A DNA stretch of 64,000 bases, from contig OX638340.1 in NCBI GenBank assembly GCA_951812955.1, forward strand, positions 1,920,001-1,984,000. The letters run 5' to 3'. Source of the DNA: an uncultured Gemmatimonadota bacterium. Its GTDB lineage: Bacteria > JAAXHH01. The stretch's first letter is position 1, and the number at the start of each line of letters is the position of its first letter. This document shows positions 2,391-37,375 of the stretch, piece after piece. Below the pieces are notes generated by a model. The model had not been told where the DNA came from, did no database searches, and saw nothing but the letters and a program-made list of their open reading frames with translations. Made by a program: the position numbers and the translations under genes.

Positions 2391-4388
2391 TTACCATGTT
2401 TCCACGATGTGGCCCGAATTCGGAAACCAGATTACATCGACGCAGTAGGAAAGCGCCACGCCCAGCACGTAACCCACCAACATGCCGATGAAGAAGGGCT
2501 GCGTCTCCCGGTACAATCTCGTGCCCCCCAGTTTAAGGATAATGGCCTTAACGAGCCAGACCAGGAAGATCGACGTGGCGATCATACCGATTCCCCAGGT
2601 CTTGGCAACAGCCCAGCCGATGGGATGCAGCGGCCACCAGTGGAAATTGTGGTGGGCCAGGATCAGCAGCCAGGCTATGAAGGCGCCGACCCCCAGGCCC
2701 AGGTACTCCCCGCCGGTCAACTGGGTCTGGTTATTGATCCATGTCGTCAGCGTGTTGTAACCCGCCTTCGCGTTTCCGAATGCGTCCCTGAACCCATCCG
2801 CGCCCGTGGTTTCGTAACCCAGGAAGACAGTATATACTACGGAAATGATGGCGGCCATGACCAGCGCCGAGACGATGACGGGGAAGATGCCGCGCCGGGC
2901 GCCGCCAATCTCGTCGCCCATCTTGTTTACGTGGGCCATGGCGCACATGCCCAGCGTACGCCAGTTCCGTGAGAATGTCTGCGACAGGGTCAGGATGGTG
3001 AGATCCGCGCGGTGCAGGTTCGCCGATCCGAAGGAGAACACCGTAAAGTCATGGGCGTTATATGGCAGGTCGAGATTAATCAGGCCCGCTTCCGCGACCA
3101 CGCGGGTGACCCCAAGAAAGAGGAGCATGCAGGTGGCCAGCAGCGTGGCCGCGGCGGCGAAGGACATGCCCATGCTGATCAGGAAGAAGAACATGTACGT
3201 GATGCCGAGTACCACGCCGCACATGGCGGTCCTGTAGGAGAAAAACTCCCCCGAATCGTCGATGTCGTTTCCCCTTCCGATGGCCTTACGCACCACGTCG
3301 TAGAGGTGGCGCCGGGCCATCCAGAGCCCGAACAGGGTGAACATGAAAAACCCGCCCAGGTGCTGGGCCGTGACGATCTCGGTCGTCTTCGGAATGCCGA
3401 ATCGACTCATGATGCCGATCTGGATCGTGGCCAGCAGGAAGAACACCCAGATGCTGAACAGGATGTTGAGATTCGTAAAGAATCCGATGCCGATGAAGGC
3501 GAAATTGATCTTGAACTGGATCGGCGGGAAGGATTCGGCCAGGGTGATCGGTATGCGGTAATCCCCGCCCAGTCTGATGGGCACCACAGCGTCCCAGTAC
3601 GAGACGATGTTCCAGAGAATGATGAAGAGGGGGATGGAGAATCCGTACCAGAAAACCCTGGACCGGGCGATCCGGGGCAGTACGGAGCCGCTTTGGTCAT
3701 CTTCGATGAGCAACAGGGGCACGCGGGCCAGCGGAAAGGTCAGACGTTCCCGCTCGATCCACTGTTTACGCAGGATCACCATGAGCGACGCGCTGGCGAA
3801 GAAAAGGGCCAGAAAGAAGGTGCCCCACCAACTCATGGGGATGATCCAGTCCCGCCAGGGAATGACGCCGGTGGAGGGCAGCCCCTCGTAGAACCAGTGC
3901 ACCGCCCGCCGTTCATCCGGGATGATGAGCCAGGTCGGGAGATACTCGAAAAACAATTCGACATACCTGTTCTCGGAGTTGGCATAGTAGTGCGGAATGG
4001 ATGGAACGGCGACCCAGTAGGTCGTAAATGCCCATCCGGGAATAGCCGAGGCCGTAAACACGATGAAAAAGATTATCATCAGTTCAGGAGCTGTGAATAT
4101 TCGAGTCGGTGCGAATCGCTTCAACAGGCCGTTTACGACGAAGACGACCAGCATGAAGGGGAAGAGCGCCGCCATGGGCATGTGGGTAATGGACAGGTAG
4201 GATGAATGAGCCTCGAAGGCGGAATGCACGACCCACCACGCCATGGCCGCGGACAGGAAGAGTCCCAGACCCACGGCACGAAGGGTCATGCCCGAAGCAA
4301 GCCCACCGGTTCTGCCGGGAGGACCTACATCGGGAGGATAGGAATCCGGCCTGCCTGCAGACGGGGGAGTCCGCTCTTTAACACTCAT
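2391..4388 (-). CDS. large polytopic inner-membrane protein of unknown function (>=12 predicted TM helices)
   Basis: 665-aa ORF with many hydrophobic segments and aromatic-rich loops; no recognisable catalytic motif; coding strand chosen over the antisense ORF 3012..4205. Confidence 0.55.
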   Translation of the reverse strand: MSVKERTPPSAGRPDSYPPDVGPPGRTGGLASGMTLRAVGLGLFLSAAMAWWVVHSAFEAHSSYLSITHMPMAALFPFMLVVFVVNGLLKRFAPTRIFTAPELMIIFFIVFTASAIPGWAFTTYWVAVPSIPHYYANSENRYVELFFEYLPTWLIIPDERRAVHWFYEGLPSTGVIPWRDWIIPMSWWGTFFLALFFASASLMVILRKQWIERERLTFPLARVPLLLIEDDQSGSVLPRIARSRVFWYGFSIPLFIILWNIVSYWDAVVPIRLGGDYRIPITLAESFPPIQFKINFAFIGIGFFTNLNILFSIWVFFLLATIQIGIMSRFGIPKTTEIVTAQHLGGFFMFTLFGLWMARRHLYDVVRKAIGRGNDIDDSGEFFSYRTAMCGVVLGITYMFFFLISMGMSFAAAATLLATCMLLFLGVTRVVAEAGLINLDLPYNAHDFTVFSFGSANLHRADLTILTLSQTFSRNWRTLGMCAMAHVNKMGDEIGGARRGIFPVIVSALVMAAIISVVYTVFLGYETTGADGFRDAFGNAKAGYNTLTTWINNQTQLTGGEYLGLGVGAFIAWLLILAHHNFHWWPLHPIGWAVAKTWGIGMIATSIFLVWLVKAIILKLGGTRLYRETQPFFIGMLVGYVLGVALSYCVDVIWFPNSGHIVETW

Positions 4389-6745: not shown

Positions 6746-8314
6746 ATGAGCCGGACTGGATTTGTCACGATTTTATGTGCGTGTTTAGGGCTTTCAAGCG
6801 CGTGCAGCATGCAGGAGTTCGGATTCGAGCGAGACGAACGAGAGATCGAATTTGAGCACGACGGGCAAGACTATATCGATAGCACCAGGCAGAAATACGA
6901 GGTGAACTCCGGTGGGACACTGACGGTCGATGCCAAATTTGGGGCAATTCGCATCAGAAGCTCGATCAATGATGAAGTAGATGTCCTGGTGAGAAAGCGA
7001 TTTCGGGCAACCGATGCTGACCAGGTTCGAAAAGCCTTCAGTAATATCGAAGTCGTAATCGAACAGACGTACAACGGGGTACGAATCGAAGTCGATCAGA
7101 TCAGGTACCCCACGTACACGAAATGGTTCTGGCAGGAAGACTGGCCGGATCGGGTCTATGTCGAAATCAATGTTATAGTGCCTGAGGAATACAACCTCGA
7201 CCTCATTACCATAAGCGGTGATATCCAGACGGGGAATATCGCAGGAAATGTGACGGCTGAGACTCTTACCGGGGAAATTTCGACCGGTCCCACCGAAGGT
7301 GACTTGAGCATAAAATCGAACAGCGGGAATATAGAAACCAGCCGCGTGGTAGGCAGGTTGCACACCACTACACTGACAGGTAACATCAAGATCGGCCCAG
7401 TGGATGGTGATGCCACGGTCGATTCAAACTCTGGTAGAATAGAAACAGGTACCGTAGAGGAGGATCTGCAAGCCAAGACCCTAACAGGTAACATCAAGAT
7501 CGGCCCAGTGGATGGTGAGGCCACGGTCGGTTCGAACTCTGGCAGTATAGAAACAGGTACCGTAGTGGGGAATCTGCACGCCAAGACCCTAACAGGTAAC
7601 ATCGAAACCGGCCCAGTGTTTGGTGATGCGACGGTCTCTTCGAACTCTGGCAGAATAGAAACAGGTGCCGTAGCGATGGATCTGCACGCCAAGACCCTAA
7701 CAGGTAACATCGAAACCGGCCCCGTGGATGGTGATGCGACCGTCTCTTCGGCGACTGGCAGAATAAAAACAGGTACCGTAGAGGGGGATCTGCACGCTAG
7801 GACCTCAACAGGTAAAATCGAGATCGGTCCTGTGGATGGTGATGCAAACGTCAGTACGACATCTGGTATGGTCGAGGCCTCAAACGTGTTAGGGGTTTTC
7901 GAAACCAGATCCCTGAGCGGAGATATCAGACTAGGCCCCACAAGTGGCGACATTGTTGCTAGTTCAACCAGTGGTGATATCGAGGGGGAATTGATCGTAA
8001 CCGATCCATCCGTCGAGGCCAGGTACGACATGCAGACTCTGAGCGGAGATATAACCATTCAAATGCCAGTTGACATCCCGTCTGTTATTGATGCGCAGAT
8101 CACTATCGGGGAGATCATTGATCCGTGGTTGCCAAATTGGTGGCATGTCCAAAGGCGAATTAAATCCGATTTCGACCTGAACTTTAGTAGAATAGAATCT
8201 AGCCCAGGGAACTATGCAATTAAAGCTATCGGTGAAACGAATGGCGGTGGAAACAGAATCAAGCTGGTATCTACCGCTGGTAACATACGTATCCGAAGTA
8301 AAGACGATGAGTAG
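6746..8314 (+). CDS. DUF4097-like repeat protein / putative adhesin-type beta-solenoid lipoprotein (paralog 1 of 3)
   Basis: GGAGGAGG RBS before ATG; signal peptide with lipobox-like 'LGLSSAC'; long run of 18/36-aa 'TLTGNIxxGPxxGDxxVxSxSGxIET' repeats. Confidence 0.7.
   Translation: MSRTGFVTILCACLGLSSACSMQEFGFERDEREIEFEHDGQDYIDSTRQKYEVNSGGTLTVDAKFGAIRIRSSINDEVDVLVRKRFRATDADQVRKAFSNIEVVIEQTYNGVRIEVDQIRYPTYTKWFWQEDWPDRVYVEINVIVPEEYNLDLITISGDIQTGNIAGNVTAETLTGEISTGPTEGDLSIKSNSGNIETSRVVGRLHTTTLTGNIKIGPVDGDATVDSNSGRIETGTVEEDLQAKTLTGNIKIGPVDGEATVGSNSGSIETGTVVGNLHAKTLTGNIETGPVFGDATVSSNSGRIETGAVAMDLHAKTLTGNIETGPVDGDATVSSATGRIKTGTVEGDLHARTSTGKIEIGPVDGDANVSTTSGMVEASNVLGVFETRSLSGDIRLGPTSGDIVASSTSGDIEGELIVTDPSVEARYDMQTLSGDITIQMPVDIPSVIDAQITIGEIIDPWLPNWWHVQRRIKSDFDLNFSRIESSPGNYAIKAIGETNGGGNRIKLVSTAGNIRIRSKDDE
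7373..7912 (+). repeat. intragenic tandem array, 5 x 108-bp units (36-aa protein repeats), first four highly similar at nucleotide level
   Basis: Units begin at 7373, 7481, 7589, 7697, 7805 (ctaacaggtaacatc...); directly visible in sequence. Confidence 0.75.
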
Positions 8315-8406
8315 TAGAGCGAAGACACAACCATTGAATCCCTACGGAAGTCTCAATGACAACTCCGGTAGATGTCTTTACTACACAACCGTGGGAGTGG
8401 AATAGT

Positions 8407-9171
8407 ATGAAGACGATATGGATCACAGCGATTACGTGTATAGGTATTTATCCGGTTCTTGATTCCGGCGCGCAGACCACAGAGGTCATTCAAGTTGGGC
8501 AAGGATACGCGGCAACCATTGAAGAAACATTTACTGTGGAACCGGGCGGCGAACTGACCATCGATGCCGACTTCGGATCCGTCCGGATCGAGACTTCGAC
8601 GAGCAACACCGTGGAGGTTCTTGTGGAAAAGCGCCTGAAAGAGGGCACCGAAGACCAGGCACGCCGAGCCTTCGAAGAAGTGGAGGTAACAACAGAACAG
8701 CGGGGCAACGACGTACACATCGACGTTGACAATTCGCGATGGTTCAAGCGCGCCAGGGTTTCCGTAGCTATGACCGTGCAGGTGCCTTATACATACAGTC
8801 TGGATATCAAGACGGCAGGAGGCGGCATCGAAATCGGGAACCTGGACGGCGAGATCACGGCGAAGACTGCAGGCGGAAGCATCAGGACAGGAACCACGAA
8901 AGGGGACGTGACCGCCAAGACCCTGGGCGGAAGCATCCGTATCGGCCCGACTGAGGGAGGCGTGTCTGCCAAGACGATGGGCGGAAATATCGCTATAGGG
9001 GATACGAATGGGGACGTGTCGGCCCACACGCTGGGTGGAAGCATCCGCATCGGCATTGCGGACGGGGATGTACTTGCCAGGACGATGGGCGGAAACATCA
9101 CCGTTGAAGAAGCCTCGGGTAAAGTGTCTGCCAAGACCCTGGGCGGAAAAGTCCGGGTCGGTTCCACGTAA
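8407..9171 (+). CDS. DUF4097-like repeat protein (paralog 2), secreted
   Basis: Signal peptide 'MKTIWITAITCIGIYPVLDSGAQ'; 20-aa 'KTxGGxIxIGxxxGDVxA' repeats; start moved to 8407 (RBS GGGAGTGG) rather than track start 8356. Confidence 0.65.
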   Translation: MKTIWITAITCIGIYPVLDSGAQTTEVIQVGQGYAATIEETFTVEPGGELTIDADFGSVRIETSTSNTVEVLVEKRLKEGTEDQARRAFEEVEVTTEQRGNDVHIDVDNSRWFKRARVSVAMTVQVPYTYSLDIKTAGGGIEIGNLDGEITAKTAGGSIRTGTTKGDVTAKTLGGSIRIGPTEGGVSAKTMGGNIAIGDTNGDVSAHTLGGSIRIGIADGDVLARTMGGNITVEEASGKVSAKTLGGKVRVGST

Positions 9172-9219
9172 CATATCTCTGGCGAAGACAACACCGCCTG
9201 TTTAGACATAAAGGGAGGG

Positions 9220-10532: not shown

Positions 10533-11491
10533 TCAGGCCGCGCCCAGATACCCAGCGAGTTGAGCGGGCATGATGTTCCCGCCGCTGAGCAGAACCACGA
10601 CTTTCTTGCCTTCCAGCGAAACGATGCCGTTCAACAACGCTGCTACGCCCACGGCGCCGCCCGGTTCAACCACGAGCTTGGTTGCCCCGATGAGGTACTT
10701 CACCGCGTCGATCGCCTGCGCGTCGGAAACCAGGACCATTTCATCCACGTAGGCCATTACGTGTTCGAAGGTAAGGTTGCCGGGGCGCGGCGCCACGAGC
10801 GAGTCGCACACCGTGTTCGGTTCCTGTACCTCGCAGATCTCTTTCTTCAGAAAAGATTGATAAACCGCTTGTGACCCTTCGGGTTGCACCCCGATCACTT
10901 TCACCGCGGGGTTCAGCGTCTTCACGGCCGTGGCGACACCGCCGATAAGGCCGCCGCTACTCACGGGCACGATGACCGCGTCCAGATCCTGTGCCTGCGC
11001 CATGATCTCGGCGCCGATGCTGCCGTGACCCCGAACGACGTTTTCGTCCTCCCACGTGTTGATCGCGGTGATTCCCCGTTCTCTGCCCAGCCGGCCCAGC
11101 GTGTCCCACCGGGCCTGGTTGTGGTTCTCGCACAGAACCGCTTCGCCCCCGTAGTCCCTGGTGCGCCGGATCTTGTACGGCGAGGTTTTCTCCATCATCA
11201 CTATGGCGGTTGGTATCTCGAGCAAAGTTCCCATGAAGGCGAAGGCCGTGGCGAAGTTGCCGGAGGACGAAATGGCGGCGCCTTTTTCCTTCTGAACATC
11301 TGATAGGCGGTTCAGGATGGTAAATGCTGCTCGCGTCTTATACGATCCGGTCACCTGCAGGTTCTCCGCCTTGAACCAGACGTCCGCGCCCGATAGATCG
11401 GAGACCGATGGAGACCGGAGGAGGGGCGTGTATACGATCTCCGGTGGTAGTTCCCGCCGTGCCTGTTCGATTTCTACCAACGTGACCATCA
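10533..11491 (-). CDS. threonine/serine dehydratase (PLP-dependent, fold type II)
   Basis: 'FKAENLQVTGSYKTRAA' PLP-lysine motif, 'SSGNFA', glycine-rich 'VSSGGLIGGVA'; true start set at MMVTLV (GGAGG RBS) rather than the 444-aa track ORF. Confidence 0.75.
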
Positions 11492-11633
11492 TGATACCTC
11501 CGGTTCGCTCAACGTCCCGGGTTGTGTCCGTGTCCGGTGGCCCACGGCAGACAGTTCGACCGACTGTTCCGCTTCCGGACAATCTGTTCAGCCAACTTGC
11601 GGAGTCAAGCGATTTTAACCTGTAACAAGGCAC

Positions 11634-11693
11634 AGGACATCCGGCGCAACAGCTCAGGACATCCGGCGCAAAGGTGCGGGACATCCGACGCAA
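11634..11693. promoter_or_regulatory. three direct repeats GGACATCCGGCGCAA spaced 22 bp (plus a fourth GGACATCC at 11725), upstream of the 11879 gene
   Basis: Repeats at 11634-11649, 11656-11671, 11678-11693; two-helical-turn spacing typical of response-regulator binding sites. Confidence 0.4.
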
Positions 11694-11878
11694 GGCAGCC
11701 AAAGAAAACACGGAAAGGTCTGTCTGGACATCCCGGTCATGAACGCCTATATTGCGCCCTTCGTTGTCACCTGGCGCTTCAGTTGAAGAAACAGGGGCAC
11801 TGAATTGTAGAATATAAGATCGAACGTTGCTGTCTGTATCTGGGGAACCAAACTCGTTGTTCGACACTGGAGGATTGA

Positions 11879-14443
11879 ATGTTATTTCGCCTGACCGCCC
11901 GAATATCCGGCGGCCTGCTATGTGCTTTTGCCGGTCTCCAATTGAATCATGCCATTGCGTCAGCTCAATCTACAGACGATCAGGCTACGCTGAACAAAGG
12001 CATAGCGGAAACCGTGGCGGCGATATCGGAAGAAACCGAACGGACCTCTGACCCGCGGCCTTTCAGCGTTCCCCTTCCCGTATCCAAAACACTCTTCGAC
12101 TACGGAAATCTAGATTCCGACGACTACATACTTTCGGCCAAGCGGGCTGTTTCGACTATCGAGGTGGACGGACACCTGGATGAAGCCGAATGGCAACAGG
12201 CTGAAGTCGCCGGCGATTTCTTCCAGCTTGAACCCGTCGAAGGCGCCCCGGCAACCTTCCCCACCGAAGTCAGAGTGCTGTACGACGACAATAATCTGTA
12301 CGTGGGATTCGTCTGTTTCGACCCCAATCCGGAGAACATCATGGCCCCGGACATGCAACGGGACACCCGGATGAGTTTCTCCAACGACATGGTTACGGTC
12401 GTTATCGCATCCCTCGACCACTACCGCGAAGCCTTCGAATTCCAGACCAATCCCAACGGCGCCCGGTCCGATTCCTTCGTCAGCGCTGAAGGTAACAACT
12501 CGGACCGTGACTGGAACGGATTGTGGAATGCGGCCAGCCAGGTGTACGATTACGGTTGGTCGGCCGAATACGTGATCCCCTTCCACACGCTGCGGTTTCC
12601 CAAGCGCCAGAACCAGACCTGGGGCATAAACTTCGGACGCCGAATCCAGCGCAGCAGGGAGGAATCCTACTGGGTTCCCCTGAGCCTGAAGGACGGCGAC
12701 CAGGCGCTGTTTCGATTCGGCAAGGGCGGCCGACTGACGGCCCTGTTCGATATCACGCCGGGCGGACGGGTCCAGGCGACCCCGTTTACCGTACTTGGCG
12801 CCCAGTCCTCACGGATTACCGAATCCGCCCCGACACCCGCTCGCCCGATCGCCGCGACGGACCTCGACAATGGTATGCAGCGGAGTTTGGGCGGCGACCT
12901 TAAGGTCAGTGTCACATCGGGTCTTACGTTAAATGCGACCGTCAATCCCGATTTCGCCCAGGTGGAAGCGGACGACGAGGTCGTGAACCTTTCCCGCTTC
13001 GAATTCCAGTTTACCGAAAAGCGCCCCTTCTTCCTGGAGCGCAGCGATATCTTCACCTTGAACCAGCGGCCGCAACGACGCGGACCGCAACGTGGCGGCG
13101 GCGACCTGACGCCCCAGCTGTTCTTCAGCCGGCGCGTCGGACGACAGTTGCCGGACGGTCAGTCCGTCCCCATCGACCTCGGCATGCGCCTGACGGGAAA
13201 AATCGGGCATACGACCATCGGGTTCCTGAACGTTCAAACCCGGGAGACCCAGTACGACGACGACGGGGAACAGAAGATGGAACCGCTGACCAACTGGCAA
13301 GCCCTGCGTGTAATACGGGACTTCGGGTCACGGTCGAGCGTCGGCATGATGGCTACCTTCAAGGAACCGAATCCCCGATTCGATGACCGGGTCGGGATGG
13401 CCATACCCCGTTACGCCGAGACCGACTATAACCGCGTGATGGGATTCGACCTGAACCTGGCCTCGCGGGGGACGAATCACCGGGGGCAGATTACTTTCGC
13501 CAAAAGCTGGACCGATACGCTGAGCACCAGCAACCAGGACTGGACTTTTCGGATTATCGAGCGGTGGCAGAACCGGTGGCTTATGTACGGGATTTCCTAC
13601 CTCGACATCGGCGAGGATTTCATCGCCCAGTCCGGCCTGGTCAGAGACGAAGGCCTGCAGCGGGTAGGGGGCGGCATGACGGCCAATACCTTTCTCCGCC
13701 GGTTTGGCATTCGGCGGATCAACGGGGGGTTCAGGAGCAATTATGTGACCCGCAAGAACACGGGTTTCTCCGATGCCGATTCCTGGTCATTCCAGCCCAA
13801 TGTATTCCTGGAACTGGAACGGGGAATGTGGATCTCCGCGTCATATAACATGAATTTCGATACACTCAGCGAAACGACGCGCATAGCCGGCGTTCATTTC
13901 ACCGAAGGATCCTATTCCTTCAACCAGGGCAGTCTCTTCCTCTTTACCGACAGTGGCCGGAAGATCTCCTATCAAGGCAGCGTCCGGTACGGCAGGTTCT
14001 ACGGCGCCGACCTCCTCAGCCTGTCGAGTGAACTGTCCATCAAGCCGAATCCCCGTTTCGCGCTGGAACCTGGCATTACCCGCAGCCGGGTCGACCGGGG
14101 CAATCGCCTGGGTCTGGAGGACGACGAATACGATCATCGTACGCAACTCATACCCAGTGTCCGAATGAGTTACGCCTTCACGCCGAATCTGTCGTTCTCC
14201 TCCTTCGTCCAGTTGAACGCGGATCGGCAGCGGGAGATCGACGATTACCACATGAATACGGTAACGATGAACCTCCTCCTCGCCTACCGGTCGCCCTTCG
14301 GTCACTCGTTCTTCCTGGCTTTCAACCAGTTCCGCGATGACGACCTCGATACCGACGGTACCTTCGGCGTCTACGAACGAACGCCCCTGCGCCTGAGGGA
14401 CCAGCAGATCGTCGCCAAGGTGTCATACCTGCTGAACCTGTAG
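11879..14443 (+). CDS. CBM9-like/DUF5916 family outer-membrane-associated protein (putative carbohydrate-binding N-domain plus C-terminal beta-barrel)
   Basis: Signal peptide; 'IEVDGHLDEAEWQQAEV..DFFQLEPVEG...VRVLYDDNNLYVGFVCFD' resembles CBM family 9/DOMON-like modules; long beta-rich C-terminus. Confidence 0.55.
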   Translation: MLFRLTARISGGLLCAFAGLQLNHAIASAQSTDDQATLNKGIAETVAAISEETERTSDPRPFSVPLPVSKTLFDYGNLDSDDYILSAKRAVSTIEVDGHLDEAEWQQAEVAGDFFQLEPVEGAPATFPTEVRVLYDDNNLYVGFVCFDPNPENIMAPDMQRDTRMSFSNDMVTVVIASLDHYREAFEFQTNPNGARSDSFVSAEGNNSDRDWNGLWNAASQVYDYGWSAEYVIPFHTLRFPKRQNQTWGINFGRRIQRSREESYWVPLSLKDGDQALFRFGKGGRLTALFDITPGGRVQATPFTVLGAQSSRITESAPTPARPIAATDLDNGMQRSLGGDLKVSVTSGLTLNATVNPDFAQVEADDEVVNLSRFEFQFTEKRPFFLERSDIFTLNQRPQRRGPQRGGGDLTPQLFFSRRVGRQLPDGQSVPIDLGMRLTGKIGHTTIGFLNVQTRETQYDDDGEQKMEPLTNWQALRVIRDFGSRSSVGMMATFKEPNPRFDDRVGMAIPRYAETDYNRVMGFDLNLASRGTNHRGQITFAKSWTDTLSTSNQDWTFRIIERWQNRWLMYGISYLDIGEDFIAQSGLVRDEGLQRVGGGMTANTFLRRFGIRRINGGFRSNYVTRKNTGFSDADSWSFQPNVFLELERGMWISASYNMNFDTLSETTRIAGVHFTEGSYSFNQGSLFLFTDSGRKISYQGSVRYGRFYGADLLSLSSELSIKPNPRFALEPGITRSRVDRGNRLGLEDDEYDHRTQLIPSVRMSYAFTPNLSFSSFVQLNADRQREIDDYHMNTVTMNLLLAYRSPFGHSFFLAFNQFRDDDLDTDGTFGVYERTPLRLRDQQIVAKVSYLLNL

Positions 14444-18154: not shown

Positions 18155-19984
18155 TTACGCGAGTCCCAGTTCCATCAGTTTCTCCGTGGTGGGCCGTCCG
18201 TCCGCCGACCAGCCCCTTGCCGCGTAGTAGTCCGGCAGCATGGCGTCGAGATCGACGGTCACCCCCGCGGAAGGACCATCCTTGTGGGCTTCTTCCATCA
18301 ATCGTTTAGGCAGCGTGTCATCGGCCGCGGTGAGGCCCGCCCTGAGATTCCACAGCCGTTCGATATTCCAGATGCGCTCGCCGATGTGCACGAAGTCTTC
18401 CATGGTATAGTCTACGCCGGTGGCTGCGGACAATACGGGGATCAGGTCTTCCAGCGGCGCGCCCGCCGTGGTGAACATGCAGATGCCCGTGGCGTCGTGG
18501 GCCGTGGTCCGGTTTTGTTCCTCGGCCACCCAGACCGACTTGCCCTCGGTGCCGTGGGGATCGTGCTCGCCGGTGGTCTCGATGCCGGGTGTCCAGGCCC
18601 TCAGGTGACAGGCGCCGCGGTTGCAGGTGGCATAGGCCACGCCCATGCCCTGGAATCCCCGTGGATCGTAAGCGGGGAATTCCTGTCCCTTGACGCCCAT
18701 GAAATACTCCGGATGCTCGAATTTCTCGGTCATCCGCTTTGACCCTTCGGCCAGTTCGTCGCCGAAACCCTCCCGGAATCCCGTGGCTTCCGTCATGGCG
18801 ACCAGAGCCTTGCCGTCACCGAACCGGAACGCCATGCCCGTCTGCCCATCGCTCAGCAGGCCCCGCTCATACATTTCCATGGCCGCGGCCAGCGTGGCGC
18901 CCATGGAAATGGGATCCATGCCGAGATCGTTGCACAGGTAGTTCGCCATGACGATGGCGTCCATGTCATCCACGCCGCAGTCGGCCCCGAGCGACCAGAG
19001 GTTCTCGTATTCGGGTCCTTCCCCGGCGACCTTCCAGTTGCGGGGATGCATGTTGACCATGTACTGGTCGGCATTGGGGGAAACCTGGGTCACACGGCCG
19101 CAGGCGATGTTGCAGGCGAAGCATGCCTTGTTGGCGACCAGCCAGTTATCCTTGATGCTCTCCCCGTTGATCGCCTCGGTGCCCTCGAACTGTCCGGCCG
19201 TGAAATTGCGCGTCGGCAGCCCGCCGAAAGCGTTGACGAGGTCGATCGTTGGCGCTGTGCCTAATTCCGTAAGGCCTTGCCGGCCAGGGCTTTCGGCCAG
19301 GTGTTCGTGATAAGGCCAGATGGCGGACATGTAGTCCCGGGGCCGGGCAATCCGGACCCCCTGGTTGCCGCGTACGGCGATCGCCTTGAGGTTCTTGGAC
19401 CCCATGACGGCGCCGACGCCGGAACGGCCCGCGGCACGGTGCTTGTCGTTGACGATGCACGCGAACCGCACCAGGTTCTCGCCCGCCGGTCCGATGCCGG
19501 CCACCCGTAGTTCGGGCATGCCGGTCTCGTCGCGGATGGCGTCCTCGGTTTCCGAGACCACCTTGCCCCACACATTGGAGGCGTCGCGGATCTCGACGCG
19601 GTCATCATCGACAAGGAGGTAGCACGGACGGTCCGACCGGCCTTCCACGATCACCATGTCGTAGCCGGCGAACTTGAGTTCCGGACCCCAGTGGCCGCCT
19701 GAATTGGACGTCGTGATGGCGCCCGTCAGCGGTCCCTTGGTCACCACCATGTACCTGGATCCGCAGGAGGCGTTGGTGCCCGTCAGCGGCCCGGTGGCCA
19801 TGATCAGCTTGTTGTCCGGTCCGAGGGCGTCGACAGAGGGGTCCATCTCCTCGTAGAGGTACCGCGCGGCCAGCCCGCGGCCGCCGATGTATTCCTCGGC
19901 CCAGTCGAGCCTCAGAGGCTCTTTGGTCGCCTTGCCCCGCGAAAGATCCACCCGCAGGATATGGCCGGCCCACCCGTGTGTCAT
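18155..19984 (-). CDS. aldehyde:ferredoxin oxidoreductase (tungsten/pterin AOR family), paralog 2
   Basis: AOR N-terminal domain 'ILRVDLS..GGRGL..YLYEE', Cys ligands 'CFACNIACGR'; start set at MTHGWAGHIL. Confidence 0.85.
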   Translation of the reverse strand: MTHGWAGHILRVDLSRGKATKEPLRLDWAEEYIGGRGLAARYLYEEMDPSVDALGPDNKLIMATGPLTGTNASCGSRYMVVTKGPLTGAITTSNSGGHWGPELKFAGYDMVIVEGRSDRPCYLLVDDDRVEIRDASNVWGKVVSETEDAIRDETGMPELRVAGIGPAGENLVRFACIVNDKHRAAGRSGVGAVMGSKNLKAIAVRGNQGVRIARPRDYMSAIWPYHEHLAESPGRQGLTELGTAPTIDLVNAFGGLPTRNFTAGQFEGTEAINGESIKDNWLVANKACFACNIACGRVTQVSPNADQYMVNMHPRNWKVAGEGPEYENLWSLGADCGVDDMDAIVMANYLCNDLGMDPISMGATLAAAMEMYERGLLSDGQTGMAFRFGDGKALVAMTEATGFREGFGDELAEGSKRMTEKFEHPEYFMGVKGQEFPAYDPRGFQGMGVAYATCNRGACHLRAWTPGIETTGEHDPHGTEGKSVWVAEEQNRTTAHDATGICMFTTAGAPLEDLIPVLSAATGVDYTMEDFVHIGERIWNIERLWNLRAGLTAADDTLPKRLMEEAHKDGPSAGVTVDLDAMLPDYYAARGWSADGRPTTEKLMELGLA

Positions 19985-20070
19985 GAAGAAGGCTCCGTTC
20001 CTCGGCGCTAGCCGGGTGATGCAGGGCCGCGCCCTGTGGATCACCCTTCCGGCTCATGCCGGATGAAGCG

Positions 20071-21918
20071 CTAGGTCAATCCCAGCGACGACAGCTTCTC
20101 CTGGGTGGGTTCGCCTTCCGCGTTCCAACCGCGGAGTTCGTAGTATTCCGGCAGCATCTCGCCGAGCCGGTTTACTTCGCCCTTGGTCGGGCCATCGGGG
20201 ATCGGGTCTTCGAGCAGCCGCTTAGGCAGCGTGTCGTCCTTGCCCGAAAAGCCCGCCCGCTGGTTCCACATGCGTTCGATATTCCAGACGCGTTCTCCGA
20301 CTTCCATCAGTTCGGGTACGGAGTAGGAAATCCCGGTCACCGCCTCGAGCTGGGGCTGTATTTCGTCCAGGCCCACGCCGAAGGTCAGGAACAGGCAGAG
20401 TCCAGACGCGTCCACGGTGCAGGTGGCGTCCTGGAAGATCTTCGTGATCTCTGCTTTACCTTCCGTCACGGCCGGATCCATCTTCTCCGGAATCCCCAGG
20501 ATCTCGGGGGCGACCGTGTAGCTTTTCAAATGGCAGGCGCCTCGGTTCGAGGTCGCGTAACCCAGCCCCATACCCTGGATCGCGCGGGCGTCATAGGCTG
20601 GGAATTCCTGGCCGCGCACGCCCATGAAGTACTCCGGATGATTGAACTTGGCGGTCATGCGCTTCGATCCTTCAGCCAGTTCGTCGCCGAAGCCTTCGCG
20701 ATAGGCCGCCTTCTCCACCATGGCGACCAGCGCTTCGCTGTTACCGAAGTTGAGCGCCATGCCGGTTTGCTCGTCGGTGACTGCGCCGTTTTCGTATAAC
20801 TCCATGGCCGCGGCCAGGGTGGCTCCGAAGGAGATCGGATCCATGCCGAGTACGTTGCAAAGGGCATTGGCCTTGATGAGCGCATCCAGATCGTCGATGC
20901 CGCAATCGGCACCCATGGCCCAGGCGTTCTCGTACTCCGGTCCCTCGACCGCGATCTTCCAGTTGTGCGGCCGCGTGGTCACGGTGAACTTGTCCTGCGC
21001 CTCGCCCGGAAGCTGCGACACCCTCCCGCAGGCTATCGTACAGCCAAAACACGCCTTGTTGGCCACCAGTCGCGTATCGGCAAGGGTCTCCCCGCTGATG
21101 TTGTCCGCGCCTTCGAGCTGGGATACCTGGTGGTTGTTTGTCGGCAGTGCGCCGCTCTCATTGATGATATTGACCAGCACCGCGGTGCCGTATGCGGCCA
21201 GACCCTCACCCGTTACCGGATGCTCGACCAGCTTGCTCTTCATCTCCCACATGGCCGACATGAACTTCTGCGGGTCGGCGATGGGTACGCCCCCGGTACC
21301 GCGTACGGCAATGGCTTTGAGGTTCTTGGAACCCATGACCGCGCCGACGCCGGATCGTCCGGCGGCCCGGTGCCGGTCATTGATGATGGCGGCGAAACGC
21401 ACGAGGTTTTCGCCAGCTGGACCAATACAGGTAACGACCGTGTCGTGCTGTCCCGACTCTTCCCGGACGATGTCGTCCGTCTCCCATACCGTCTTGCCCC
21501 ACAGGTGTTCTGCAGAGCAGATGCGGACGTCGTCATCACAAATGGATATGTAGGACGGAACCGGCGCCCGGCCTTCCACGATCAGCATGTCGTAGCCGGC
21601 AAACTTCAGTTCCGGCCCCCAGTGGCCGCCGGAGTTGGACGTGGTAATGGCGTTCGTCAACGCCCCCTTGGTGATCACCATGTAACGGGAACTCGTCGAT
21701 GCGTTCGTGCCGGTCATGGGACCGGTCGCGAAGATCATCTTGTTGTCCGGGCCCAGCGCTTCCGCCGCCGGGTCCATCTCTTCATAGAGGTACTTGGCCC
21801 CGAGACCGCGCCCGCCAACAAAAGACGTGGCCCAATCCATGTTGAGGGGCTCTTTGGAGATCCGACCGGTGGTCAGATCGACGCGCAGAATCGTGCCTGT
21901 CCATCCGCCGTTGCTCAT
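20071..21918 (-). CDS. aldehyde:ferredoxin oxidoreductase (AOR family), paralog 1
   Basis: Same domain organisation as 18155..19984; start at MSNGGWTG with GGGAGGGAA RBS and ATGA overlap with upstream ferredoxin stop. Confidence 0.85.
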   Translation of the reverse strand: MSNGGWTGTILRVDLTTGRISKEPLNMDWATSFVGGRGLGAKYLYEEMDPAAEALGPDNKMIFATGPMTGTNASTSSRYMVITKGALTNAITTSNSGGHWGPELKFAGYDMLIVEGRAPVPSYISICDDDVRICSAEHLWGKTVWETDDIVREESGQHDTVVTCIGPAGENLVRFAAIINDRHRAAGRSGVGAVMGSKNLKAIAVRGTGGVPIADPQKFMSAMWEMKSKLVEHPVTGEGLAAYGTAVLVNIINESGALPTNNHQVSQLEGADNISGETLADTRLVANKACFGCTIACGRVSQLPGEAQDKFTVTTRPHNWKIAVEGPEYENAWAMGADCGIDDLDALIKANALCNVLGMDPISFGATLAAAMELYENGAVTDEQTGMALNFGNSEALVAMVEKAAYREGFGDELAEGSKRMTAKFNHPEYFMGVRGQEFPAYDARAIQGMGLGYATSNRGACHLKSYTVAPEILGIPEKMDPAVTEGKAEITKIFQDATCTVDASGLCLFLTFGVGLDEIQPQLEAVTGISYSVPELMEVGERVWNIERMWNQRAGFSGKDDTLPKRLLEDPIPDGPTKGEVNRLGEMLPEYYELRGWNAEGEPTQEKLSSLGLT

Positions 21919-22406
21919 GCCGCGTTCCCTCCCTCGATGGACTGCAGATAGGAAGCATTGACCTTTTCGGCCCAGCCACCCAGCCAGTCGGCCGATTCGC
22001 TCTCGGTGTATTCGATCGCGCCGGTGGGACAGGCGACCGCGCAGGCGGGATTGCCGTCGCACAGATCGCACTTGAAGGCCTTCTGCGTATCCGGATTGTA
22101 GAACACCGTGCCGAAGGGACAGGCAATGGTGCACAACCCGCATCCGACGCAGTTTGCATCGGCCACGACCTTGGCGCCGGTATCCGCGTCGACACTGATG
22201 GCGTTAACGGGGCAGGCCGTCATGCACCAGGCTTCGTCGCACTGAAAACAGGTGTACGGCGCGTAACTGGCCTGCTCATCGAAAATGTTCACGCGAATCA
22301 GCGACCGGGATGGTTGAAACATGCCGGTCTGCACCCAGGAACATGCCAGTTCGCACTGCATGCACCCGGTGCATTTTTCGGGTATAATGCGTAGAGATTT
22401 AGCCAT
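21915..22406 (-). CDS. 4Fe-4S multi-cluster ferredoxin (AOR electron acceptor)
   Basis: Four CxxCxxCxxxCP-type cysteine clusters; first gene of minus-strand AOR operon. Confidence 0.8.
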   Translation of the reverse strand: MAKSLRIIPEKCTGCMQCELACSWVQTGMFQPSRSLIRVNIFDEQASYAPYTCFQCDEAWCMTACPVNAISVDADTGAKVVADANCVGCGLCTIACPFGTVFYNPDTQKAFKCDLCDGNPACAVACPTGAIEYTESESADWLGGWAEKVNASYLQSIEGGNAA

Positions 22407-26762: not shown

Positions 26763-26814
26763 GCCGAGGCTATTCGATTTTGGCTGTTGCATTGCTCCCT
26801 TTGGCCTAGTCACG

Positions 26815-26898
26815 AGAAAGGTGGATTGTTGACACGGAAAGGATGGTTCGTTGAAGAGTGGTACATTGTTGAAGCGTAACAGACGAACCGGGGCGGTT
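26815..26898. repeat. copy A of an ~85-bp imperfect direct repeat (partner at 33894..33976)
   Basis: ggtggattgttgacacggaaaggatggttcgttgaagagtggtacattgttgaagcgtaacagacgaaccggggcgg versus copy B; roughly 85% identity by eye. Confidence 0.5.
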
Positions 26899-27150
26899 TC
26901 CCTAATCGATCGGCTCGGGTTCCCTGAACTGCGCTGACGTGACGAGCCAAGTCGCTAATTCAAAGGGTGATCCGTCTAAACGCGTTGACAGGATGGTTCT
27001 CAAATGCTTATAGTCCGGTAGAGAACCACTCAGTTGTATCTCGGCCTCATGCGGTCACGTATTGCGCAGTCCAAAACCAGTAAAATGGCCGTGCGAACTG
27101 CCGATCATGGTATGTTACAGCACACATGCGATGACAAGCGAACGATTAAC

Positions 27151-33532: not shown

Positions 33533-33893
33533 GGTTGCTCCGGATTAAGGCAGGTAAACCTAGCAAAAATCGGACCCGGTATTTTCGTGTTTTTCATGTA
33601 AAGTGGTATGAATTACAATATGATGGAAAAAGAGTGACTTGTGTGTGAATTATCCGCTCAGCAAGAAGAATATTGCGCGAATTTTACGCATAGTGTATCA
33701 TATCGCCATCACGGCCAGCTCTCGATCGGCCTCCGGCGGGCATTCCAGCGCGTCCGCCCAACCTGAGCGTTTCACCCTCAGAAGGCGATCTATCCGGCCG
33801 GCCTCCGACGGGCGTTCCGGCGAGTCGACCTCCGGCCGCAGGAGCGCCGCATGCCGCAGGGATCACGGGCAAGGGTCACGGGCAAGGGTCACG

Positions 33894-33976
33894 GGAAGGA
33901 TGGATCTGTGACACGGAAAGGATGGACCGGTGAAGCGTGATACATCGGTGAAGCGTAAAGACGGACCGGGGCGGGA
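33894..33976. repeat. copy B of the ~85-bp imperfect direct repeat; overlaps the 5' end of the hybrid kinase gene
   Basis: ggatggatctgtgacacggaaaggatggaccggtgaagcgtgatacatcggtgaagcgtaaagacggaccggggcgg. Confidence 0.5.
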
Positions 33977-36305
33977 GATCGAGGCGCTGCGCGAACGCAT
34001 CTCGATGCTGAGCGCGGCAAGCCTGCGCATCAGCGCGAGCCTGGACCTGGAGACCGTCCTGCACGAGGTCATCAACAGCGCCCGCGCGCTGATCGAGGCT
34101 CGTTACGGCGGCATCGTCACCATCGACGAGTCCGGGCAGCCCCGGGACTTCATCACCTCCGGTTTCACCGACGCGGAGCACCGCCAAATGGCCGACTGGC
34201 CCGACGGGCCCAGGCTCTTCGAGCACTTCCGCGACCTCAAGGGCGTGCTGAGACTGCCGGATGCGCGCGCCTACGTGCGCTCGCTCGGCTTCGCCTCGGA
34301 CCGGCTGTCGTCCGGCACCTTCCTGGGCACCCCGATGCGCCATCGCGGCCTGCACGTCGGCAACTTCTATCTCGTCGAGAAGGAAGGCGGAGCGGAGTTC
34401 ACCAGCGAGGACGAGGAGATCCTGGTGCTGTTCGCCTCCCAGGCTGCGACGGCCATCGCCAATGCCCGCACGTACCAGGCCGAGCAGCGCGCCCGGGCCG
34501 ACCTGGAGGCCCTGGTCGAGACCTCGCCGGTGGGCGTCCTGGTCTTCGATGCCGGGACCGGCCGGCTCATGTCGTCCAATCAGGAGGCGAAGCGGATCGT
34601 GGAGGGCCTGCGCATGCCGGGCCGTCCCATGGAGGCGCTGCAGGAGGTGATCACCTGCCGGCGCGCCGACGGGCGCGAGATCGCACTGGAGAAGTTGCCC
34701 CTGTCGCAGGTGCTGAACCGCACCGAGACGGTCCGGGCCGAGGAGATGGTGCTCTCGGTCCCCGACGGACGAAGCGTCACGGCGCTGATCAATTCCACGC
34801 CGATCCACTCGGAGCAAGGCGCTGTCGTGTCCGTTGTGGTCACCATGCAGGACCTGGCGCCGCTACAGGAACTGGAGCGATTACGGGCGGAGTTCCTTGG
34901 CCTGGTGAGTCATGAGTTGCGCACCCCGCTCACGTCGATCAAGGGCTCGGCGGCCACGCTGCTGGATGCCGCCCCGAAACTCGACCCGGCGGAGATGCGC
35001 GAGTTCTGCCGCATCATCCTCTCGCAGGCCGATCACATGCGCGTCCTGATCAGCGACCTGCTGGACGCGGGCCGCATCGACACGGGCACGCTGTCGGTGA
35101 CGCCCGAGCCCTCCGAGGTCGCCGCCCTGGTGGACCGGGCGCGGACCACGTTCCAGAGCGGCGGCGGCAGGCACCCCGTACTGATCGACCTGCCGCCCGA
35201 TCTGCCACGGGTCATGGCCGACCGGCAGCGCATCGAACAAGTGCTGAACAACCTGTTCGCCAATGCCGCGCGGCACGCTCCCGAGTCCTCTCCCATCAGG
35301 GTCTCCGGGGCGCGCGACGGGGTGCATGTCGCGGTCACGGTACGCGACGAAGGCGCGGGAGTAGCGCCCGACCGGCTCCCGCATCTCTTTCGGAAATATG
35401 CCGGGCTCGAGGGCGGCGACCGCGAGTCCGGGGCTGCCGGCTCGGGGCTCGGTCTGGCCATCTGCAAAGGGCTGGTCGAAACTCACGGAGGGCGTATCCG
35501 GGCCGAAAGTCCGGGCATGGGCCAGGGCACGCGCATCACCTTCACGATCCCGGTAGCCGCCGAGGCCGCCGAGGCCGCCCGAGAGCCGGTTCGTACCGAC
35601 CCGCAAGACACCGGAGAAACTGGCGAGCCGACGCGCATCCTCGTGGTCGACGACGACCCGCAGACGCTACGCTACGTGCGCGAAGCGCTCACGGCGGCCG
35701 GCTACTCCGCGCTCGTGACCAGCAACCATGACGAACTGGCGAGCATTATACACGCCGAGCGACCCGAACTGGTCCTGCTGGACCTGCTGCTGCCCGGCAC
35801 GGACGGTATAGCGTTGATGGAACGCCTGCCCGAACTGGCCGAACTTCCGGTCATCTTCATCTCCGCCTACGGACGGGACGAGACCATCGCGCGGGCGCTC
35901 GATACCGGCGCCGCCGACTACCTCGTCAAGCCCTTCTCGACGACCGAGCTCGTGGCGCGGATCCGGGCGGCGCTGCACAGACGGGCCGATCCCGACCCCT
36001 TCGTGCTGGGCGAACTCGCCATCCACTACGATCGGCGAAGGGTGAGCACAGGCGGTGTACGGGTCGACCTCACCGCCACCGAGTATGAGCTGCTGCGCGT
36101 CCTCTCGCTCAACGCGGGACGGGTTTTGACCTTCGCCACCCTGATGCGCCAGGTCTGGGGTACGCGCGCCTACGCCAATCCGAAGCTCGTGCGCGCCTTC
36201 GTCAAGAAGCTCCGCCACAAGCTCGGCGACAATGCAGACAAGCCTATCTACATCTTCAACGAGCGCGGGGTCGGCTACCGAATGGCCCAGCCGGCCGAAT
36301 CGTAG
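33930..36305 (+). CDS. single-polypeptide two-component system: GAF-PAS-HisKA-HATPase_c-REC-OmpR/PhoB-type winged-helix DNA-binding domain
   Basis: H-box 'LVSHELRTPLTSI', G-boxes 'GSGLGLAICKGLVETHGG', REC 'ILVVDDDP...DLLLPGTDG...KPF', trans_reg_C 'VDLTATEYELLRVL...RGVGYRM'; very GC-rich. Confidence 0.8.
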   Translation: MKRDTSVKRKDGPGREIEALRERISMLSAASLRISASLDLETVLHEVINSARALIEARYGGIVTIDESGQPRDFITSGFTDAEHRQMADWPDGPRLFEHFRDLKGVLRLPDARAYVRSLGFASDRLSSGTFLGTPMRHRGLHVGNFYLVEKEGGAEFTSEDEEILVLFASQAATAIANARTYQAEQRARADLEALVETSPVGVLVFDAGTGRLMSSNQEAKRIVEGLRMPGRPMEALQEVITCRRADGREIALEKLPLSQVLNRTETVRAEEMVLSVPDGRSVTALINSTPIHSEQGAVVSVVVTMQDLAPLQELERLRAEFLGLVSHELRTPLTSIKGSAATLLDAAPKLDPAEMREFCRIILSQADHMRVLISDLLDAGRIDTGTLSVTPEPSEVAALVDRARTTFQSGGGRHPVLIDLPPDLPRVMADRQRIEQVLNNLFANAARHAPESSPIRVSGARDGVHVAVTVRDEGAGVAPDRLPHLFRKYAGLEGGDRESGAAGSGLGLAICKGLVETHGGRIRAESPGMGQGTRITFTIPVAAEAAEAAREPVRTDPQDTGETGEPTRILVVDDDPQTLRYVREALTAAGYSALVTSNHDELASIIHAERPELVLLDLLLPGTDGIALMERLPELAELPVIFISAYGRDETIARALDTGAADYLVKPFSTTELVARIRAALHRRADPDPFVLGELAIHYDRRRVSTGGVRVDLTATEYELLRVLSLNAGRVLTFATLMRQVWGTRAYANPKLVRAFVKKLRHKLGDNADKPIYIFNERGVGYRMAQPAES

Positions 36306-36388: not shown

Positions 36389-37201
36389 TTAAACCCGCTT
36401 CTTCCGACCCACCAGGACCAGGTTCGCCGGCATTTTCTCAAGCGGCGCGCCGCCCTCCCAGTCCTGGTTCCCGTCACCGTACTCCTCCACGGCCAGGAGT
36501 TCGCATCCACTCTCGATCAGCGCGCGGATCATGTCCGAAACGGTCCAGTGGAATTCATAACTGGGGAGCGGACTGGGCGGTCCTTGGCGTCCTTGCGTAC
36601 CGGACGGCCCCGCACCCTCGGGCAGTTCCTCTGACCGGTCATAGGTAAAGGGACCGTGGTCGAAGTAATGATATTCCTGTTTCAGCGGCCCGGCGTCGAG
36701 TTTCCATAGCCTGCGGAACGGATGGTACTCGTTGACCATGAAGAGTCCGCCGTGTTTGAGAATCCGGATTCCCTCGCCGTAGTAGCGCTGCAGGTCGGAC
36801 ACCCAGACAGCAACGTGGCCTCCCGTGTAAACGATGTCGAAATGATCGTCCGGCAGTTCGTGCAGATCAGTCACGTCAGCCTGGAGAAACCGGATCGAGA
36901 GTCCAAGCTCACCCGCTCTTCCGGCGGCGATATCCAGCTGGGTCTGCGATATATCCACGGAGGTGACCCGCGCCCCGGCACCGGCCAGGGCAAAGGCCGC
37001 CAGGTTGTCTCCGCTGCCGAGCACGCAGACGGACCTTCCGGATACCTCGCCGAGGTATTTCAATTCGACGGCGTCCAGCACAAGATGGATGTTGTCCGGG
37101 ATGCTCCGCCAGTCCACCCTGGCGTCGATCTCCGCCTGCCATCCGGCGGAAACGGCGTCCCAGCCCCTGCGATTCGCCTCGTGCATGGGATGCTGGCTCA
37201 T
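36389..37201 (-). CDS. class I SAM-dependent methyltransferase (paralog of 23302..24123)
   Basis: 'VCVLGSGDNLAAFALAGAGARVTSVDIS...FLQADV...ILKHGG' colinear with 23302 protein. Confidence 0.7.
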   Translation of the reverse strand: MSQHPMHEANRRGWDAVSAGWQAEIDARVDWRSIPDNIHLVLDAVELKYLGEVSGRSVCVLGSGDNLAAFALAGAGARVTSVDISQTQLDIAAGRAGELGLSIRFLQADVTDLHELPDDHFDIVYTGGHVAVWVSDLQRYYGEGIRILKHGGLFMVNEYHPFRRLWKLDAGPLKQEYHYFDHGPFTYDRSEELPEGAGPSGTQGRQGPPSPLPSYEFHWTVSDMIRALIESGCELLAVEEYGDGNQDWEGGAPLEKMPANLVLVGRKKRV

Positions 37202-37204
37202 TTA

Positions 37205-37375
37205 CTTAAATCCTCCCAGCGACATCGATCCGCCCAGAGCTCTCCCGATTCAGGCACGCTGGTTCAGGGCCCTCCCGGTTCAGGCTCTCCCGCTCAGGGC
37301 CCGCTCGAGTCAGGGTCCGCCTGGCTTGACCCAGGTACTCCCGACTCAGGCACGCAGCCTCAGGTCCGCGCGGCT
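37205..37375. repeat. degenerate tandem array of about 17-18-bp units (consensus CTCCCGNTTCAGGCNCG, about 9 copies) between two methyltransferase genes
   Basis: Seen directly: ctcccgattcaggcacg ctggttcagggcc ctcccggttcaggctct cccgctcagggcccg ctcgagtcagggtccg ... ctcccgactcaggcacg. Confidence 0.45.

Follow-up and report, generated by a model that had tools for sequence, protein, structure and literature searches.

A tandem 22-bp repeat array between divergent genes of an uncultured Gemmatimonadota bacterium as a candidate row of regulator-binding sites

The iterons of plasmids and phages are direct repeats of 17–22 bp that are bound by Rep initiators. Direct repeats are also read by transcriptional regulators. 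Members of the OmpR/PhoB family such as ArcA use direct-repeat elements of ~10 bp set 11 bp apart, to which further elements may be added at 11 or 22 bp (PMC3798270). XylS binds the Pm promoter as one monomer to each of two homologous direct repeats of 15 bp, in which box A (TGCA) and box B (GGTA) are separated by 6 bp (PMC5481539). Tandem-repeat copy-number variation in M. tuberculosis provides an example of intergenic and promoter variable-number tandem repeats (VNTRs) (PMC12817950), and repeated decoy sites for a transcription factor have been described in a synthetic yeast system (PMC3322331). Here, we consider an array of three 22-bp direct repeats in a 64-kb stretch of an uncultured Gemmatimonadota bacterium (contig OX638340.1, positions 1,920,001 to 1,984,000; this whole stretch is referred to as the window). 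The array lies in a 386-bp gap between a minus-strand gene of the PALP family and a plus-strand gene encoding a CBM9/DUF5916 protein.

Judged from sequence, the array is somewhat more probably than otherwise a row of binding sites for one sequence-specific DNA-binding protein, laid out on an upstream element that has been multiplied in one clade between back-to-back promoters. Such an array would have arisen by tandem multiplication, in a 22-bp register, of an element upstream of a promoter that is single-copy in more distant relatives, and it would sit between a strong sigma70-like promoter (P1) and a weaker promoter defined by conservation (block A). One protein would read an asymmetric bipartite 15-bp site, GGA-N8-GCAA, through contact patches about one helical turn apart, and the 22-bp spacing of the units would place successive protomers in head-to-tail order along almost one face of the helix. 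A change in the number of units (2, 3 or 6) would then alter occupancy or cooperativity, and with it the spacing of the two promoters. Binding of the core by a protein is what we infer here, and the same holds for which gene is controlled and for the direction of the effect.

Layout and constraint of the repeat units

Positions 11630–11695 of the window consist of three head-to-tail 22-bp units with nothing between them, for which Tandem Repeats Finder (TRF) gives a period of 22, 2.8 copies and a score of 85. Unit 1 (11630–11651; GCACA, GGACATCCGGCGCAA, CA) has its core at 11635–11649, unit 2 (11652–11673; GCTCA, GGACATCCGGCGCAA, AG) at 11657–11671 and unit 3 (11674–11695; GTGCG, GGACATCCGACGCAA, GG) at 11679–11693, all on the plus strand. 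The 15-bp core GGACATCCGGCGCAA is exact in units 1 and 2 and has one mismatch in unit 3; the cores start at 11635, 11657 and 11679, exactly 22 bp apart. Unit 1 is orthologous to unit 1 of the related loci L050/L051, and unit 3 adjoins the ancestral downstream flank. No match to the core at ≤2 mismatches occurs elsewhere in the 64-kb window, and the five matches found at three mismatches are at chance level. An earlier, sequence-only reading had proposed three direct repeats in the shared upstream region between divergent genes, and these are real and non-coding. It placed them about 190 bp upstream of the start at 11879; the array ends 184 bp before that ATG. It also took their spacing to be exactly two helical turns; the 22-bp period is confirmed, but two turns amount to 21 bp at 10.5 bp per turn.

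The case for a binding site comes mainly from the contrast between core and spacer. Among the units of the window, one of 15 core positions varies as against six of seven spacer positions (Fisher p = 6e-4); counted pairwise, mismatches amount to 12/21 (~57%) in the spacer and 2/45 (4%) in the core. When 14 distinct units from six lineages are taken together, non-consensus letters make up 10 of 210 in the core and 21 of 98 in the spacer (p = 2e-5). The consensus core of these 14 units is GGAcatCcGgyGCAA and the invariant positions are GGA...C.G..GCAA, with GGA at unit positions 6–8 and GCAA at 17–20. The orthologous cores of the window and L050 differ at one of 45 positions (counted by hand), whereas ~6 differences would be expected from the 13.8% observed at four-fold degenerate sites. 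The spacers seem to change faster than four-fold sites, and most of the changes are transitions at the CpG of the spacer (GCGCA to GCACA, GTGCG or GTACA); this would fit deamination driven by cytosine methylation. The contrast suggests that a bipartite protein site, GGA-N8-GCAA, is under selection. In its general form, the idea that a regulator binds here finds support, as a conserved 15-bp core with a variable 7-bp spacer is the pattern that a sequence-specific DNA-binding protein would give.

A possible, although less probable, explanation is that the array is a neutral or nearly neutral minisatellite, in which slipped-strand or unequal-exchange duplication has copied 22 bp that include an old promoter element, and the extra copies are merely tolerated. 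The main argument against neutrality is that the core/spacer contrast in the window and L050 would hardly arise unless the core were under selection. The slower change of orthologous cores than of four-fold sites points the same way, as does the fact that the duplicated segment is one of the few intergenic blocks conserved across the clade.

Other identities for the repeats were considered and rejected. A 93-aa open reading frame (ORF; 11522–11803) spans the array, but the number of units differs by multiples of 22 bp among relatives, and the array is taken not to be coding because such copy changes would shift any reading frame. A structured RNA was rejected since the array folds no better than shuffled sequence (z-score -0.13); Rfam gave no match in the intergenic region at a permissive threshold, nor in the window at the gathering threshold. 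A palindromic operator was suggested by the inferred ancestral unit, GCGCAGGAY.ATCCGGCGC, which is an inverted repeat at 7 of 9 positions. Of its two arms, the right one is retained in the window and the left one has decayed, and 1-bp insertions or deletions are found at the centre of the ancestral inverted repeat in single-copy relatives; dyad symmetry is therefore not the conserved feature. A sigma54 enhancer site was rejected in that no GG-N10-GC (-24/-12) promoter was seen on either side when the intergenic sequence was read by eye. Finally, an iteron-type replication origin was rejected: there is neither a rep gene nor an AT-rich unwinding region next to the array, plasmids show no similarity to it, and GC skew does not turn.

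Copy number in relatives and other arrays of the region

Species-representative genomes were scanned with the CBM9/DUF5916 protein, which gave 22 loci (numbered with the prefix L) in different genomes, with 77–99% identity over the matched segment; 20 of them contain the upstream region and were used. All 22 are metagenome-assembled genomes, some from sponge metagenomes, and are labelled Latescibacterota or Gemmatimonadota. Further contigs of close relatives were obtained from a metagenome scan anchored on P1 and from exact-protein look-ups; exact look-ups of both flanking proteins of the window gave no contig of the same species. When the upstream regions are aligned, four conserved blocks (A, B, P1 and D) stand in otherwise unalignable DNA. 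Block B, GCGCAGGAT(A/T)TCCG...GTTGTCAAAGA, is the 22-bp unit of the array.

An element related to block B is present as a single copy, at the homologous position, in 13 more distant genomes. Its GCGCAGGAT part is exact in seven of these (L002, L020, L013, L015, L018 and L003 among them), is found within two mismatches in three more (L017, L010 and L021) and is degraded beyond two mismatches in L019, L016 and L006; the downstream GTTGTCAAAG is likewise conserved in most single-copy relatives. More than one copy is seen only in the clade of the window (protein ≥94% identical). The window lineage has three units, as have L050/L051, in which the units are orthologous one by one to those of the window, the odd third unit GTGCGGGACATCCGACGCAAGG included. 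There are also three units in L046, with identical spacers, two in L001, two in L047/48/49, and six in L014/44/45, where a higher-order period of 44 bp is apparent. These six multi-copy lineages differ from each other by 10–20% at four-fold degenerate sites of the adjacent gene, and from single-copy L002 by ~30%. By this comparison, the array is a clade-specific tandem multiplication of an older single-copy upstream element, which has since expanded or contracted. The ‘phasing’ of the repeats is the register of that duplication, because the copies number 2–6 within the clade and the element is single in its relatives. Arrays are identical within L047/48/49, L050/51 and L014/44/45 (3, 2 and 3 consensus assemblies); since these genomes are themselves nearly identical, with 0–0.2% at four-fold sites throughout, only very fast phase variation is excluded.

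Block B is absent from L008, from the L004/5/7/12 clade and, at the orthologous position, from L011. As a separate observation, L011 has at 3809–3823 the sequence GGAAATCCGTCGCAA, which matches the core of the window at 13 of 15 positions and keeps all positions that are invariant across the arrays. It lies at a non-orthologous place, between the start of the dehydratase-like (PALP) gene and block A, and a rebuilt P1 (TTGACT-16-TATATT) follows ~70 bp downstream. By chance, ~0.015 matches of this type would be expected in these intergenic regions.

Other tandem arrays are present in this regulatory region as well. In L004/5/7/12 there is a 19-bp array of TGGCGTATCACTTGATATC with 1 to ~8 copies (L004 3827–3886, L005 3749–3886, L007 3846–3886 and a single unit in L012), and L006 has an independent 17-bp version with three copies (3843–3891). 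Both lie between the -10 hexamer of P1 and the leader block (block D), the 5' half of which they duplicate. A 16-bp array of GTGGCGCACRCGCGAG, with 2.4–4.5 copies, is found just upstream of the dehydratase-like gene in L004/5/7/12 (L005 2497–2567, L004 2605–2643, L007 2608–2662 and L012 2636–2676); this is the clade in which a gene for a periplasmic-binding protein is inserted between the dehydratase-like and CBM9/DUF5916 genes. The region has been hit independently at least three times, in block B (22 bp), in the leader block (19 and 17 bp) and upstream of the dehydratase-like gene (16 bp). It is tempting, although doubtful, to see in this a recurrent mode of regulatory evolution in the sponge-associated clade, in which conserved cis-regulatory blocks are amplified in tandem, operator copy number is tuned in each lineage and the core in the window is under purifying selection.

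The neutral explanation draws on the same facts. The two further independent arrays in this regulatory region belong to other lineages, the copy numbers of sister lineages (2, 3 and 6) follow no visible pattern, and the duplications in L046 and L014 are very recent. Moreover, TRF finds 33 arrays of period 10–45 in 309 kb of DNA from the clade, among which short periods (13–32 bp) are frequent, and nearly all of the 33 are non-coding once over-extension of ORFs is allowed for.

Several considerations count against the array as a row of selected binding sites. As short arrays are common in non-coding DNA, its mutational origin needs no function, and the ease with which the lineage generates arrays reduces the prior probability of function for any single array. 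Common descent links many of the units counted above, which means that the counts are not independent. The core/spacer contrast is weak in L014, and the identical spacers of L046 imply recent duplication, so that there is no signal of selection there. The part of the element that is conserved across species, GCGCAGGAT, overlaps only partly with the part conserved within arrays (GGA...GCAA). The loss of the element from several lineages indicates that it is dispensable. The searches for a regulator and for a regulon point in the same direction. Among the scanned ORFs of the window, no helix-turn-helix regulator flanks the locus and no HTH_18/AraC domain was found; the only OmpR-type winged helix (Trans_reg_C) in the window belongs to a hybrid kinase gene at 33930–36305, 22 kb away, although a regulator may be encoded far from the site that it binds. 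Outside the intergenic region, the motif RGGAYAWCCGR has three matches in the 309 kb of clade DNA, where ~2.4 are expected by chance, and this lack of a regulon signal is also what a minisatellite would give.

If the array does bind a regulator, the relatives offer a natural series of 1, 2, 3 and 6 operator copies in otherwise nearly identical promoters of uncultured symbionts, which could show how duplication of a binding site retunes a divergent promoter pair. It would also be a first candidate cis-element for genes of an abundant lineage of sponge symbionts that is without genetics, and a regulator that reads GGA-N8-GCAA, if real, would define a new family of binding sites. If the array is neutral, it is still useful as a marker for typing lineages.

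Flanking genes, promoters and candidate regulators

The minus-strand neighbour (10533–11492) encodes a pyridoxal-phosphate-dependent serine/threonine-dehydratase-like enzyme of the PALP family (Pfam PF00291, E = 1.8e-74). Its start is the ATG at 11492, behind GGAGG, and not the far-upstream GTG of the mechanical ORF; threonine/serine dehydratase models of NCBIfam match the protein below their cut-offs. The plus-strand neighbour (11879–14443; 854 aa) matches Pfam PF19313 and PF06452, and its ribosome-binding site, GGAGGA at 11869–11874, is conserved in nearly all orthologues. No sequence match to a solved structure was found for the CBM9/DUF5916 protein.

The predicted promoter P1 of the CBM9/DUF5916 gene (11725–11753, plus strand) has a -35 hexamer TGGACA (11725–11730) and a -10 hexamer TATATT (11748–11753), separated by 17 bp, with a predicted transcription start at ~11760. 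It is sigma70-like, with 10 of 12 consensus matches, and is the sole promoter called by the scan in the intergenic region. A pattern check found both hexamers and the 17-bp spacing unchanged in 19 of 22 genomes. In a 20th, L005, P1 is visible by eye, the long array there having pushed it outside the searched stretch; in L020 and L013 it was found again by the promoter scan. The sequence-only reading had described a fourth copy of the motif downstream of the three repeats. A fourth GGACATCC is indeed present, at 11726–11733, and it coincides with the TGGACA of P1, so that this fourth motif is the -35 hexamer of a promoter conserved in the clade. It is not an in-phase fourth operator, as it starts 47 bp after the third (2x22+3) and is therefore 3 bp out of the 22-bp register.

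The likeness between the core and the -35 region raises the question of whether the units are copies of a promoter element, each with a -35-like AGGACA, that serve as decoy or auxiliary docking sites for RNA polymerase or sigma factor or are remnants of promoter duplication. We regard this as improbable. It is true that the core starts with GGACAT as does the -35 region of P1 (CTGGACATCCCGG compared with CAGGACATCC-GG), that GGACATCC is found in both in the clade of the window, that outgroups have GGATATCC-like elements together with GGACAAC or GGACAAT at -35, and that the other amplified block, in L004–L007, contains -35-like TTGATA/TTGAAG. Nevertheless, no -10-like hexamer lies 16–18 bp after any unit, and nothing at P1 corresponds to GCAA, the invariant 3' patch. 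As GGACATCC, the 8-mer that is shared, has five further occurrences elsewhere in the window, it is weak evidence on its own; the out-of-register position of the fourth motif likewise speaks against promoter copies.

On the other side of the array, block A (11581–11608, minus strand) is a putative promoter of the PALP gene, with -35 TTGACT (11608–11603), a 16–17-bp spacer and -10 CAGATT (11586–11581). As AATCTG-N17-GTCAAGCG, it is conserved in the lineages that keep the PALP gene adjacent, and its minus-strand reading is TTGAC(G/T), 16–17 bp, CAGATT. As a promoter it is plausible but weak, has a weak -10, was not called by the promoter scan and is proposed from conservation. An A-rich stretch, CAGCCAAAGAAAACACGGAAAGGTCTGTC (11696–11724, plus strand), separates the array from the -35 hexamer of P1; in the alignment its counterpart in single-copy relatives is the conserved GTTGTCAAAGA, and it may serve as an UP-like element. 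P1 is followed, ahead of the start codon, by block D, the leader block GGCGCTTCAGTTGAAG...ATTGTAGAATATAAGATCGAA (11773–11824, plus strand), which is conserved in all 21 aligned lineages; its form across lineages is CTTGAAGGATT...ATTGTAGAATATAAGATGGAAG, and the sequence is kept even where P1 is missing. RNAalifold finds no consensus RNA structure for this leader, and it has no match in Rfam; its TTGAAG-19-TAGAAT is a poor fit to a promoter.

The sequence-only reading had assigned the repeats to the promoter region of the CBM9/DUF5916 gene. They do lie upstream of that gene, but the assignment to it is uncertain. Relative to the predicted start of P1, the centres of the cores lie at about -74, -96 and -118, and relative to that of the block A promoter (minus-strand start ~11574) at about -68, -90 and -112. 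In every lineage that has both, block B or the first unit begins 19–20 nt from the GTCAAG of block A, whereas the distance from block B to the -35 hexamer of P1 varies between 45 and 52 nt in single-copy genomes. This fixed spacing would, if anything, make the divergent dehydratase-like gene a closer partner of block B than CBM9/DUF5916 is. The losses allow a further conclusion. In L004/5/7/12, a 1.4-kb insertion with the periplasmic-binding-protein gene has replaced blocks A and B, and P1 and the CBM9/DUF5916 gene are intact; L008 is without block B and P1 but retains blocks A and D; in L011 the arrangement is compacted, with the -10 hexamer of P1 fused to block A. Since the CBM9 promoter persists, or block A is kept, where block B is gone, block B is accessory.

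A site for an OmpR/PhoB-type or similar regulator had been the proposal of the sequence-only reading. In its specific form, an OmpR/PhoB-family response regulator would bind the phased repeats and activate the CBM9/DUF5916 promoter, and this we consider very improbable. Direct repeats about two helical turns apart are in its favour, as is the Trans_reg_C protein encoded in the window at 33930–36305; members of the family can also use extra elements at 22-bp spacing (PMC3798270). The core site of the family consists of two elements 11 bp apart (PMC3798270), but the identity of the array to itself is 31% at offset 11, which is background (other offsets give 15–40%), compared with 82% at offset 22. 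An 11-bp sub-repeat is absent from the 22-bp unit, and the proposed architecture falls with the absence of this defining pair. A pho-box-type site adjoins or replaces a poor -35 of the promoter that it activates. The array, by contrast, ends 30 bp upstream of the good -35 of P1, replaces or abuts no weak -35, and in the L004/5/7/12 clade P1 is still there although the element is gone. The only candidate regulator lies 22 kb off, at the edge of a putative island bounded by repeats of its own.

That candidate deserves description in its own right. The polypeptide encoded at 33930–36305 combines GAF, PAS, HisKA, HATPase, receiver and Trans_reg_C domains, that is, a whole two-component pathway fused in one protein, and a 13-bp repeat in three copies (33858–33899) lies immediately upstream of its gene. 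Positions 26811–26900 and 33886–33975 share a direct sequence of ~85 bp that is 83% identical, and each holds a 22-bp repeat in two copies, GACACGGAAAGGATGG...; the pair brackets ~7 kb with a segment of low GC (~50%, compared with ~60% elsewhere). Within the bracketed stretch are a pair formed by a D12 methyltransferase and a NotI-like endonuclease, an insertion-sequence integrase (rve), a GDSL lipase-like ORF and a fragment of a sigma54 activator. The ~85-bp pair resembles the attL/attR of an integrated island, and the start of the hybrid kinase gene is adjacent to, or overlapped by, its second copy.

Other features of the window may be recorded briefly. A degenerate tandem repeat (37230–37314; 15/30-bp period, ~2.8 copies) lies between the minus-strand methyltransferase genes at 36389–37201 and 37375–38157. 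In-frame coding repeats with a 108/54-bp period (7376–7845 and 8896–9099) are found in or near DUF4097 (toastrack, LiaG-like) genes upstream of the dehydratase-like gene, and 54-bp arrays are present in most of the L loci. Both strands of the stretch 8353–9174 are open, and Pfam gives no match for the translation of either. At 18155–22143, two tandem paralogues of aldehyde:ferredoxin oxidoreductase (AFOR) stand beside a pyridine-nucleotide-disulphide oxidoreductase gene.

Comparison with known repeat systems

If, as is probable, the array is a protein-binding site, it is an ordinary kind of regulatory feature, and nothing in it is categorically new. With iterons it shares a unit of ~22 bp and phased direct repeats in several copies. 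It differs in being chromosomal, syntenic in ~20 genomes and placed between housekeeping-type genes. With bacterial VNTRs it shares a head-to-tail, non-coding, promoter-adjacent position, copy numbers of 2, 3 and 6, and the presence in these lineages of other short intergenic arrays. In contrast to VNTRs, it is invariant among near-identical assemblies of one lineage, with no sign of rapid phase variation, and its cores are more conserved than its spacers, which simple slippage does not predict. The decoy sites of yeast offer a possible functional analogy only: tandem copies could titrate a factor and sharpen a response, but that system is eukaryotic and synthetic. The OmpR/PhoB/ArcA sites have in common with the array that direct repeats lie upstream of a promoter and that extra elements can sit 22 bp away (PMC3798270); the array is without the pair of elements spaced 11 bp.

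The comparison with AraC/XylS operators goes furthest. Like the sites of this family, the core is asymmetric and 15 bp long, with patches GGA and GCAA 8 bp apart, corresponding to two successive major grooves, and the cores follow each other head-to-tail with a 7-bp spacer and a 22-bp period. The proximal site of XylS overlaps the -35 hexamer, whereas the array stands off it; there are up to six units rather than two, and no AraC-family gene is present among the scanned ORFs of the window. By their anatomy, AraC/XylS operators are the closest look-alike of the array, in a resemblance that is one of anatomy only and not of membership.

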